Shown: positions 21,182 through 28,546 of the stretch, piece by piece
How the letters are laid out: every line of letters begins with the position of its first letter
How positions within the stretch are numbered: position 1 is the first letter of the stretch
NCBI GenBank assembly: GCA_963830365.1
Contig: CAWHMU010000033.1
Span: forward strand, 32,001-96,000
DNA from: an uncultured Chlamydiae bacterium
GTDB taxonomy: Bacteria; Chlamydiota; Chlamydiia; Chlamydiales; Parachlamydiaceae
DNA length: 64,000 bases
Reading direction: 5' to 3'
The notes under the pieces: generated by a model
What the model was told of the DNA's origin: nothing
What the model saw: only the letters and a program-made list of their open reading frames with translations
Databases searched by the model: none
Program-made: the position numbers and the translations under genes

Positions 21182-24100
21182 ATGATCAATCTCGAAGATC
21201 TAATGCCGAATACTACGGTTCCGGGACTCTTGCCAGCTAACGTGCAACCTGGAGGCTCGGTTTGTGAAGGCGAACCATATCAGCAATTTTCACAAAATGA
21301 TTCAATCGCCGCCGCCGCTGTTTTCTTGCACCGCATGTTGGGGCAAGACGATCTTGTATTTCAGTGCGCAGAGAAATATGTGCACAGCCGGATCTACGCG
21401 GATATGAACTTTGTGGAGTTGCGGGAAGCGCTGGTTTCTTGTGAGCCAAGAGAAATCGTAGCGCAGGTGCTAGGCTTTGCACCATTCCAGGTTAATGTGT
21501 TGAATGGAAATTACGATCAATCGATGATGCAATGGTGGCCAGGACATTTCGAAAAAATTTGTGCGACATTGGCGAAAACTTCTGATTTGCCGATCAAACG
21601 CTTTTGCTTTATGGACGATACAGAGCGCGAATTGGTGGTTAATACTTGGAACCAAACACAATGGGATTTTCCCGACTGGAAAATGCTCCACGAATTCATC
21701 GAAGAGAAATGTCAAGAGGCGCCCCATCGGGAAGCTGTGCGTTTTGCAGGTCGAGGGATTACCTACGAGGAACTTAATGCCAGAGCAAATCAACTGGCAC
21801 ATAGCCTACGCTCCGAAGGGATAGGTAGAGATAGCCTAGTAACTATCTGCATGGACCGTTCGATCGAATTGGTGGTCGGCCTTCTTGCCATCTTAAAAGC
21901 CGGCGGCGCTTATGTCCCGATGGATCCAAGCTATCCCGAAGAGCGACTGCTCTATATCCTCGCTGATTCCCAATCGAAAGTATTGCTTACGCAAAGATCC
22001 TTTGCGCCCCGCTTCGCTGATACAGCTGAAAAGGTGATCTTCATCGATCAGGCCGAAGATCTTTCATGTTACAGTAAAGAAAACCCGGAAATCATTAACA
22101 CTGCTGACGACCTCTGCTATGTGATTTACACATCAGGGTCCACAGGCAAGCCAAAGGGGGCTGGGAACATACATAAAGGCGTTGTCAACAGAATTTTATG
22201 GATGCATGATCAATACCGTTTGGATATTTCAGACCGCGTGCTGCAGAAAACACCATTCGGTTTTGATGTGTCGGTATGGGAATTCTTTTGGCCTTTGATG
22301 GCAGGGGCGACATTGGTCATGGCAGAACCTGAAATTCATAAGGACGCAGAAGCCTTGGCCAGCTTGATCGAGCGGGAAAAGATTGCCATCCTGCATTTCG
22401 TTCCTTCCATGCTCGATCTGTTTTTGGAGGCCGATGTCTCTGCAAAATGCGGCTCTTTGAAAAAGGTGTTTACTAGCGGAGAAGCTCTTTCTAAAGATAT
22501 TGAGAAGCGTTTTTTTAATATACTGTCTGCCGAACTGCATAATTTGTATGGCCCTACGGAAGCCTCAATTGATGTGACTTATTGGCGTTGCCAGCCGCAT
22601 GATGCACACATGACAGTCCCCATCGGCTATCCAATAGCAAATACTCAAATCTATATTCTCGACGAGTTTTTGCAACCCGCACCGATCGGTAGTCCCGGAG
22701 AGCTTTATATAGGCGGTACGGGGCTTGCCAGAGGCTATAGTAACCGTCCGGAATTGACGCAAGAGAAGTTCATTGCACATCCGTTCCAAGCAAACGCGCG
22801 TGTATACCGTACAGGCGATTTATGCCGTTTTCTAGGGGATGGCGCGATAGAATATATTGGCAGAATCGATCATCAGATTAAGCTGCGAGGGTTCCGCATC
22901 GAGCTTGGCGAAATCGAAACAGCGCTTCGCAAACACCCCCAAGTCAAAAGCGTGGCTGTCATCGCACGTGAAGATGTCCCGGGGCAAAAGTACTTGGCTG
23001 CTTACATTGTATCTTTGGATCAATCTATAGAGGCTGAGCTGATTTCACGGCTCCAATGTTCGCTGCCTGAATATATGGTGCCAAGCGCCTTTGTTTTCCT
23101 GCCAATTCTGCCCCTGAGTCCAAATGGAAAATTGGATGTCAAAAATCTACCCAAACCAAAAGAACAAGGGCACAGATCGGAAGTGCCCGTCGTCTTACCC
23201 AGAAATGTGTTGGAGTCGACCCTGCGCGAGGTCTGGCGCGAAGTGCTTGGGATTCAAAATGTCTGCATTCGCAACGGCTTTTTTTCACTCGGCGGCCACT
23301 CCCTGAAAGCCATGCAACTCGTATTGCGGATTAAACGGAAGCTTAACAAGCCGATCTCGTTGCCCGAAATTTTCTCCCACCCAACGATCGAACAGCAAGC
23401 CGAGCTGCTCCAAAGCAGGGAAGAGAATGATGCCAAGGAACAGGGATTGCACAGCGACCCTGTCAATCGTTGGGAGCCATTTCTTCTGACAGATATCCAA
23501 AAGGCATACCTCATCGGCAGAACCGAGGCTTTTTCGCTAGGCGGTATCTGGTCCCATGTTTATGCCGAGAATGTCCGCGGCCAAATAGATCTTCCCCGTT
23601 TGGAAAATGCTCTCAACCTGTTGATCCAGCGCCACGATATGCTAAGAGCCGTCATTCTGGAAGATGGCACGCAGCGTGTGCTAATCCAAACTCCGCGCTA
23701 TCGGATCAGAGAGGAACAAAAGGAAAAAGAACAGGTCCGCGAAGAAATGAGGTCAAAGCAATGGCGATCAGACGCCTGGCCTCTTTTTGATGTCCGGGTT
23801 TCAAACGATCGAGTCCATTTCCTGTTCGACCTCTTAATTGCCGATGGAACAGGGTTGGAAATTATTTTTGAAGAACTTTCCAGGCTCTATGATAACAAAA
23901 AAATGGATCTTCCTCCGCTGAAAATCACCTATCGCGATTGCATTCTGGCAATGGCAGCGCAAGAGCATGAAAAAGCCAGAAAATATTGGTTTAACCGTAT
24001 AGACACCCTTCCGGATGCGCCGGAACTTCCTGTACGCAATTCTGCTCAGGCAGGTCCATTTATGCGCCACAAAGGAGAGCTTTCAGCCAAGGAATGGAAA

Positions 24101-27837: not shown

Positions 27838-28546
27838 AATTACGATTCTGTATGACAACCGCAAAGCAAATGCAGAGCTTAAAGAAGGTTTTGGATTTTC
27901 CTGCTTCATCGAGTGGAATGGACGGAAGATCCTATTCGATACGGGAGGCAAAATCAACGCCTTTTTTGATAATGCCGAAAAGCTTAAAGTTCCTCTTGAA
28001 AAAGTGACAAGTGTCGTTTTCTCTCACCATCATTGGGACCATACTGCCGGGATCGAGCAGGTGTTAAATAGAGTCCCCTTATTGACCAAAGTCTATCTCC
28101 CCGATCCTTTTTCTTCTACGTTAGAGGGGAAGATCCCCCATCAGGTCCAAGTCAAAAAGGTCGCGGAATTCGAAAAGATTGACGAGGAGGTCTACCTGCT
28201 TGTTCAAAGTGGAGGTTATTGGCTTAGCACGATTTATGAACAGGCAATCCTGCTGAAAACACCTAAAGGTGTGGTCATCGTAACCGGTTGTGCACATCCA
28301 GGGATTATCAACATCATCCAAGAAACTCAGAAGAGGCTCGGCAAAGTGCATATGGTCATCGGCGGCTTTCATCTCCATCACAAATGGAGCTGCAGCTCTG
28401 CCAAAATTGTGAAGAAATTTCAAGAACTCGGCGTAGAGAAAGTCGCGCCCTGCCATTGCGCTGGTGATACAGCCATCGCCCAATTCGAAGAAGCATACAA
28501 GGTTAACTTCCTCCGGATTGGCACAGGCAGTGTTATTGAAGTTTAA
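27785..28546 (+). CDS. MBL-fold metallo-hydrolase (DHPS-like/MJ0301-type subfamily)
   Basis: ITILYDN, ILFDTG, SHHHWDH, TGCAHPG, IGGFHL, PCHC; GAGGT RBS; overlaps the PPTase. Confidence 0.88.
   Translation: MSSSLSLATHTSKPEWPKITILYDNRKANAELKEGFGFSCFIEWNGRKILFDTGGKINAFFDNAEKLKVPLEKVTSVVFSHHHWDHTAGIEQVLNRVPLLTKVYLPDPFSSTLEGKIPHQVQVKKVAEFEKIDEEVYLLVQSGGYWLSTIYEQAILLKTPKGVVIVTGCAHPGIINIIQETQKRLGKVHMVIGGFHLHHKWSCSSAKIVKKFQELGVEKVAPCHCAGDTAIAQFEEAYKVNFLRIGTGSVIEV

Follow-up and report, generated by a model that had tools for sequence, protein, structure and literature searches.

A rare three-gene nonribosomal peptide synthetase cassette in an uncultured chlamydia, predicted to join serine and cysteine

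The closest described counterparts of the system reported here are the bacillamide synthetase BmdB and the synthetases of aryl-thiazoline siderophores. BmdB (A1-PCP-Cy-A2-PCP-C3; A, adenylation; PCP, peptidyl carrier, elsewhere T; Cy, heterocyclization; C, condensation) has two modules, and its A-T-Cy-A-T unit yields an aminoacyl-thiazoline with a free amine (PMC8795117), with the Thr of motif Cy6 and the Asp of motif Cy7 as the cyclization residues (PMC8788816, PMC9547227). In PchE, D480 is essential, and the ring product left is 4.6% in Y114A, 9.8% in Q482A, 15.3% in T474A, 28% in N368A and 50% in S472A (PMC8807600). Here, we describe a 7.4-kb cassette of three overlapping plus-strand genes (positions 21182 to 28546) in a 64,000-nucleotide window, the whole stretch of DNA analyzed, from an uncultured Chlamydiae bacterium (contig CAWHMU010000033.1, positions 32,001 to 96,000). 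Reading of the open reading frames (ORFs) and a Pfam domain search confirmed a single operon which, as originally predicted, encodes in this order a nonribosomal peptide synthetase (NRPS), its own Sfp-type phosphopantetheinyl transferase (PPTase) and a metallo-beta-lactamase (MBL)-fold metalloenzyme, with all three ORFs in the expected place.

The NRPS (21182..27190, 2002 aa) is bimodular and contains by Pfam two AMP-binding, two PP-binding, one condensation-type and one thioesterase (TE) domain, which Protein Data Bank (PDB) matches and aligned specificity codes resolve into the order C remnant-A(Ser)-T-Cy-A(Cys)-T-TE. The first A domain (A1, 21674..23161) aligns best to Txo1/Txo2, FscH and EntF and carries the code DVWHFSLIDK, compared with DVWHFSLVDK in EntF and Txo1/Txo2, and the second (A2, 24749..26206) carries DLYNMSLIWK, compared with DLYNLSLIWK in BmdB and DLFNLSLIWK in PchE; the alignment returned the same two codes that the original prediction had proposed. 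The A domains of EntF and Txo activate Ser and the Cys-type domains of BmdB and PchE activate Cys, and we predict the same substrates for A1 and A2, respectively. The serines of both carriers, T1 (23219..23410, LGGHSL) and T2 (26276..26455, LGGTSF), are intact, and so is the triad of the type I TE (26516..27139), whose Ser (GWSLG), Asp (LIDSP) and His (ATHAS) are kept throughout the family. The best PDB match of the TE is AB3403, the iterative TEs of EntF and Vlm2 scoring far lower, and the mode of release is in general poorly predicted by TE sequence.

The module order A-T-Cy-A-T-TE had been recognized before, but the N-terminal extension had been overlooked. The first ~155 aa (21182..21646) correspond to the C-terminal portion of a canonical C domain (53 domain matches at E<1e-3 among 346 proteins), and the HHxxxDG motif is missing from this region in all 11 family members examined. 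A starter C domain was considered for it and rejected, as what is present is only the tail of a C domain, devoid of HHxxxDG; because this remnant lacks an active site, the synthetase is predicted to use neither an N-acyl nor an aryl starter. Two relatives, P0100 and the NRPS of locus L023, lack the remnant and begin at A1, so that the enzyme appears to have been assembled from two pieces, an excised C-A(Ser)-T module and a Cy-A(Cys)-T-TE module of the terminal kind.

The comparison with known systems bears out the earlier statement that this is not a pyochelin, yersiniabactin or bacillamide pathway, given the Ser code, the TE and the absence from the cluster of an aryl starter, an aryl carrier protein (ArCP) and a reductase. 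The cassette has in common with BmdB the two modules, the free-amine aminoacyl starter and the A-T-Cy-A(Cys)-T core; however, it has Ser in the place of the Ala starter and a TE in the place of the tryptamine-adding C3 domain, it includes neither a decarboxylase (BmdA) nor a conserved oxidase (BmdC), its Cy6 Thr is gone, and it adds a PPTase and an MBL to the operon. It would work like a truncated bacillamide synthetase without being a member of the bacillamide family. A nitroreductase encoded 1.8 kb upstream was considered as a BmdC-like oxidase and discarded, with no match in the five ortholog loci searched and a SagB score of 27 against a cut-off of 78. The Cy and A(Cys) domains are homologous to those of PchE/PchF and HMWP2, and PchE shares the Ala at the Cy6 Thr position; different from those systems, the cluster lacks the aryl-acid starter with its ArCP, methyltransferase, epimerase and reductase, and PchE keeps the Cy7 Ser. 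The nearest relatives of the Cy domain are instead found in terminal Cy-A(Cys)-T-TE modules (P0083, P0116, P0178, P0238, P0271 and others), which occupy the same place before the TE and mostly lack both hydroxyl residues, but which end longer NRPS or polyketide synthase (PKS) lines with TubC_N or KS-AT, whereas here A(Ser)-T, the remainder of a C-A-T module, stands alone upstream.

We propose, with moderate confidence, that the cassette makes 2-(1-amino-2-hydroxyethyl)thiazoline-4-carboxylate from L-Ser and L-Cys, with the MBL editing the carrier arms. In this scheme, the PPTase would prime T1 and T2, A1 would load L-Ser (Thr in one family member) and A2 L-Cys, the Cy domain would condense the two and cyclodehydrate the product through a PchE-type Asp/Thr/Gln set, and the TE would hydrolyze off the free acid, oligomerization being possible; the MBL would act as a phosphodiesterase on mis-primed or stalled arms. 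The predicted product, with its amine nitrogen, ring nitrogen and carboxylate as donors, would be expected to bind Zn, Cu or Ni or to inhibit metalloenzymes.

The identity of the Cy domain (23459..24676) is clear, since it matches Cy structures only (8 of 8 PDB matches at E<=1e-10, among HMWP2, BmdB, EpoB, FmoA3 and PchE) and has DLLIAD, of the form DxxxxD, in the place of HHxxxDG. It keeps the catalytic Cy7 Asp (D1127) together with T1121, Q1129, N1015 and Y776, the equivalents of PchE D480, T474, Q482, N368 and Y114; the equivalents of the first four are kept in every family member that covers them, and that of Y114 in all 12 aligned. Nevertheless, several features of the same domain weigh against ring closure. 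Its motifs are off consensus (PIIFAC, HLETPQVLLD), without the Thr of Cy6 (PVVFTS) or the Ser of Cy7 (SQTPQ): an Ala occupies the position of BmdB T1196, a Thr that belongs to the catalytic dyad of that enzyme (PMC9547227, PMC8788816), and a Leu occupies that of PchE S472. Neither position bears a hydroxyl in any of the 21 family sequences (from 14 clusters, with 7 near-duplicates included; Ala and Leu/Ile), whereas at least one hydroxyl is present in 377 of 384 other motif pairs, a count that requires a PxxF motif, leaves out 12 degenerate sister domains and includes, among its 7 exceptions, 2 that look like false matches. In a FastTree phylogeny of 275 Cy domains, furthermore, the 14 family domains form one clade (support 1.0) that is sister to those 12 degenerate domains, the second Cy of Cy-A-T-Cy-A-T-TE proteins (0.92); the next node (0.985) adds five terminal modules, four with PxxFAS and one keeping the Thr.

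These observations give substance to a less probable but serious alternative, in which the Cy domain would only condense and the product would be uncyclized Ser-Cys, either linear or, as cyclo(Ser-Cys), a diketopiperazine, whose free thiol would be a ligand for Zn or Cu. Besides the loss of both flanking hydroxyls and the sister grouping, it agrees with the robust condensation retained by BmdB mutants (PMC8788816, PMC9547227) and with the non-thiazoline chemistry proposed for Cy-A(Cys)-T-TE units in thiotetronates (PMC5518548). On the other hand, the family keeps all five residues of greatest weight in PchE (Asp, Thr, Gln, Tyr and Asn), the S472A mutant of PchE retains half of its ring product, and PchE itself lacks the Cy6 Thr, its motif reading PVVFAS. 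We dropped the notion that loss of the Cy6 Thr alone abolishes cyclization, as PchE carries the same Ala and yet makes a thiazoline; the sister grouping comes from FastTree on long branches, and the sister group has no characterized member. The Ser-Cys thiazoline of the original prediction therefore stands as the likeliest product, less securely than first stated because the Cy6 Thr and Cy7 Ser are gone and because the domain groups with terminal Cy modules that mostly share the loss. Since the thiazoline acid and cyclo(Ser-Cys) have one and the same formula, mass alone cannot separate them. The sister proteins (TubC_N-Cy-A-T-Cy*-A-T-TE; P0080, P0083, P0085-P0087, P0095, P0104, P0108, P0114 and P0116-P0118, from Pseudoduganella, Caldimonas and others) have a strongly degenerate second Cy, with PFVVVSG and an altered DxxxxD, which constitutes an uncharacterized Cy-derived class.

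The third gene (27785..28546, plus strand) encodes a protein of 253 aa (P0368) with a Lactamase_B domain and the motifs SHHHWDH, GCAHPG, GGFHLH and PCHC. By sequence and fold it groups with Tw9814, Tflp and Tm1679, with which it shares HxHxDH, a Cys at motif 4 and a His-Cys at motif 5: its structural model (mean predicted local distance difference test score 89.9) best matches the phosphodiesterase Tw9814 (7DCK; template modeling [TM] score 0.85, 33% identity), followed by Tflp (2P4Z; TM 0.84) and Tm1679 (3H3E; TM 0.78). It is not a class B beta-lactamase (bla_class_B_core, 25.7 bits against a cut-off of 100), and the database label dihydropterin synthase is unsupported here; its homolog group is presumably COG1237. 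NRPS-linked members have an additional His198, present in 10 of 10 linked MBLs and in 11 of 79 lower-ranked unlinked ones, and none of the three solved relatives is connected to an NRPS in the literature that we found. Two linked MBLs (P0391 and P0405) carry 50 to 110 extra N-terminal residues without a Pfam match.

The MBL is likely a true cluster member, co-inherited with the NRPS. It lies directly beside the cassette genes at both other chlamydial loci that were read (L024 and L043), and its start overlaps the end of the PPTase gene at all three chlamydial loci. Co-location on the NRPS contig was deduced, from longest contigs of identical size, for 9 of the 13 other NRPS clusters of the family, against 0 of 108 unrelated NRPSs, and a second listing gave a tenth; the DNA itself was read for L024 and G152 (the genome of L043) only. 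Linked MBLs pair with the NRPS down to 39% identity, and the NRPS and MBL distances covary (rho 0.78; 0 of 10,000 permutations; 10 pairs). Set against this, related organisms have both genes in common, and the NRPS and MBL trees disagree in places; the linked MBLs fall within one 34-tip group of 120, and their monophyly is weak (0.30; 87/76 for three linked MBLs in another tree). Moreover, an MBL homolog occurs in 39 of the 399 other Chlamydiota genomes that were scored, only 2 of which have the NRPS, so that the MBL family normally stands alone.

As for its function within the thiazoline proposal, carrier editing is the leading, if tentative, candidate; self-protection and tailoring are each possible, on a par with one another and clearly behind, and some other role is improbable. 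Our best guess, by analogy, is that the enzyme would be a phosphodiesterase that removes mis-primed or stalled arms from the carriers, because its closest solved structure is a phosphodiesterase, because a phosphodiesterase beside a PPTase recalls the mycobacterial pair PptT (Rv2794c) and PptH (Rv2795c), a PPTase gene adjoining that of a phosphopantetheine (Ppant) hydrolase (PMC8557913), and because the cassette has no type II TE. The likeness is one of logic: both PptT-PptH and AcpH represent a PPTase gene beside a metal-dependent phosphodiesterase that removes Ppant, but AcpH and PptH have other folds (PMC8557913), and the protein described here is MBL-fold and neither of the HD nor of the PptH family. 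Tflp, an iron or Fe-S oxidoreductase, fits the model equally well and shares both Cys. A link to HlmY was also considered, HlmY being described as a metallophosphoesterase. Self-protection fits with the presence of an EamA gene at L023, a locus without the MBL; synthetic 2-substituted thiazoline-4-carboxylic acids are reportedly MBL inhibitors.

Tailoring stays a candidate because Tflp's two Cys are shared and because Tflp and CmlA are oxidoreductases among phosphoesterases (bioRxiv 2020.04.16.045138). Taken beyond the thiazoline proposal, it leads to an explanation that is a good deal less probable than uncyclized release, in which the MBL would act on the tethered intermediate as an iron or Fe-S oxidase, like CmlA, giving a thiazole or another oxidized or rearranged heterocycle, or in which the TE would oligomerize Ser-thiazolines into a macrocycle. 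The pairing of MBL and NRPS down to 39% identity, the His198 of linked MBLs, the want of an Ox domain in the cassette and the retention of a beta-hydroxy residue in one presumed Ser-to-Thr swap (P0067) would agree with it; by contrast, L023 has the NRPS, EamA and PPTase and no MBL, the top structural match is a phosphodiesterase, and the TE is closest to AB3403 rather than to iterative TEs, within the limits of such a prediction. It is more doubtful still that the noncanonical Cy domain and the MBL together build a ring new to Cy domains from the Ser/Thr beta-carbon and the Cys sulfur and nitrogen, examples being a thiazepinone and a bicycle of the penam type, the skeleton of which can be traced onto Ser-Cys; if true, intracellular symbionts would have in it a small-molecule weapon of a new class, aimed at the host or at co-infecting microbes.

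Among the best 120 of 7557 matches, we found 11 full-length relatives of the NRPS (1953 to 2132 aa, 48 to 70% identity); with two partial relatives, the family counts 13 other sequence clusters, none with a characterized name, and there is a clear gap to the next TE match (E 1e-51 versus 1e-33). Of the 150 matches listed in a Cy search against 50%-identity representatives, which multi-Cy proteins dominated, P0038 alone belonged to the family. Homologs are labeled Chlamydiae, Simkaniaceae and Rhabdochlamydiaceae. The A1 code is DVWHFSLIDK in 11 of the 14 family sequences that have A1, DIWHFGLI(D/E)K in two, and DFWNIGMVHK, which we take to be a Thr code, in P0067, which has only 40% identity in A1; a Cys-type A2 code, DL(Y/F)N(M/L/A)SLIWK, occurs in 17 of 17. 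Since the A1 codes are of Ser type, with a Thr reading for P0067, a beta-hydroxy starter seems to be kept across the family.

The full NRPS was found in none of the 40 closest relatives of this genome, and an orthologous Cy domain at 59 to 67% identity occurs in 3 of 400 other genomes of the phylum. The gene set recurs, as the synteny check suggested for the original prediction was meant to establish: L024 has NRPS, PPTase and MBL in that order before rimO, and G152 has PPTase-MBL plus an inverted NRPS between rplT and pheS, the latter NRPS being broken within A1 by an insertion sequence that has inverted repeats of 39 bp at its ends and is flanked by a 6-bp duplication of the target (L088:8340-8479, L043:13660-13797). 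In G221 the contig ends inside the TE, and neither PPTase nor MBL was found in that genome (93% complete). Locus L023, labeled Neisseria sp. (Neisseriales) with 26% GC, reads NRPS-EamA-PPTase without an MBL, the split in its NRPS being an assembly gap of N and not a frameshift; no MBL was found in its genome either (G410, completeness not given), and the same query found G235 at 37%. The claim that no transporter is present thus holds for this cassette and not family-wide, EamA being an exporter. The difference in sites between families indicates that the cassette may be mobile. One of four matches, L021 (a Planctomycetaceae metagenome-assembled genome [MAG]), was dropped as a chance motif match with no NRPS; 435 plasmid records gave a match, 39.6% at best and none an ortholog, and no ortholog was found in the viral contigs searched. 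Unrelated large NRPSs, many with Cy, occur in several other Chlamydiota and in 10 of 37 other genomes of G410's family, with open frames of up to 9528 aa (L005, L006, L029-L039, L073-L081).

Contamination, raised as a possible refutation, is unlikely, because the cassette shares its 118-kb contig with chlamydial core genes and its GC content equals that of the genome (0.486 for both); GC at third codon positions is 0.46 to 0.51 in the cassette genes, compared with 0.58 to 0.69 in six flanking genes examined. It is highly improbable that the cassette is a passenger, silent or in decay, or an artifact of assembly or binning, for the patchy distribution and the interrupted G152 copy that would suit such a reading are opposed by three intact ORFs with every catalytic motif kept (and invariant across 48 to 70% identity), by that contig and its GC, and by orthologs embedded in other Chlamydiota.

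The PPTase (27187..27837, plus strand, ~220 aa) belongs to the ACPS family and has the VGVDxE and WTxKEA motifs of an Sfp-type enzyme and a PF01648 match above cut-off; its best NCBIfam matches, HetI, AcpT and AusB, are all below their own cut-offs. The gene stands as first described, but the start proposed at 27145 gives way to 27187, which is more likely as it overlaps the NRPS stop through ATGA; the MBL start is now called at 27785, correcting the earlier call, and overlaps the end of the PPTase gene by 53 nt. The AT-rich leader (20723..21181, plus strand) contains nothing specific, with three promoter-like sites against 1.9 expected by chance. At the right edge, the convergent MBL/lptG junction holds an imperfect hairpin (28547..28690; z -1.98, 5 of 200 shuffles as good). 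The degenerate palindrome noted there previously is thus real and is not specific to the cluster, its right arm being one of 23 copies (window copy from 28645) of a repeat dispersed over 11 contigs, with five divergent pairs and no copy in three shuffled genomes, which also led us to discard a mobile-element end or an operator. The repeat, of ~50 bp and often in divergent pairs, consists of GGGCAC/GGGCTC hexamer runs followed by GTAATTTTAGTTTGG (other examples in this genome, G000, are C33:20298/20415, C33:65072/65168, C18:11792/11799 and C21:3175/3300) and appears REP- or MITE-like (repetitive extragenic palindrome; miniature inverted-repeat transposable element); positions 16800 to 34000 gave no Rfam match.

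The neighbors in the window are lptF/G, tilS, ftsH, a double-length uvrA and dacA-ybbR-folP, which, like the labels on homologs, indicate a host within Chlamydiota. About 11.8 kb separates ptsI from lptG here, whereas ptsI abuts lptG in G019, whose LptG is the most similar among the relatives (70% identity); this stretch, probably an insertion, encloses an unknown ORF, the nitroreductase, a second apbE and the cassette. Between 17174 and 20722, the ORF (413 aa, no Pfam match) has an effector-like Ser/Pro/Thr-rich stretch and the nitroreductase a signal-like N terminus. The other apbE copy is on C38, and apbE was rejected as a cassette member, with no match in the five ortholog loci searched. 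Farther away, an ankyrin-repeat protein (8199-9287) and a RING-finger protein (9661-10275) are eukaryote-like and probably host directed. No partner NRPS was found elsewhere in the genome (82% complete), which yielded a single condensation-family match; other genes in it encode a type I PKS of 2088 aa, a PfaA-like PKS and, adjoining a second Sfp-like PPTase, a separate acyl carrier protein (C16:37513-43776, C15:8097-12020, C9:24899-26025).

Environmental chlamydiae commonly carry biosynthetic clusters, most of which have no assigned product, and one proposal is that they serve in defense in amoebae (bioRxiv 2021.12.21.473556). In Data S10 of the journal version of that study (PMC9666466), the tabulated genomes have 12 NRPS regions in all, one of them in the MAG of L022, with shinorine as top MIBiG match (0.64), so an ortholog was probably counted there but not described. 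In agreement with the original prediction, a literature search that covered few subscription journals returned no description of the system. The cassette is a real and rare minimal NRPS system, probably mobile and apparently undescribed, of uncultured, probably intracellular bacteria. Because it measures 7.4 kb, brings its own PPTase and calls for only two common amino acids, it represents an unusually easy first target and a compact route to a symbiont metabolite. It tests whether a Cy domain can cyclize without either flanking hydroxyl residue, and it bears on the function of a common, misannotated MBL subgroup; an MBL-fold Ppant hydrolase, if true, would add to AcpH and PptH a third case of convergence on this activity.

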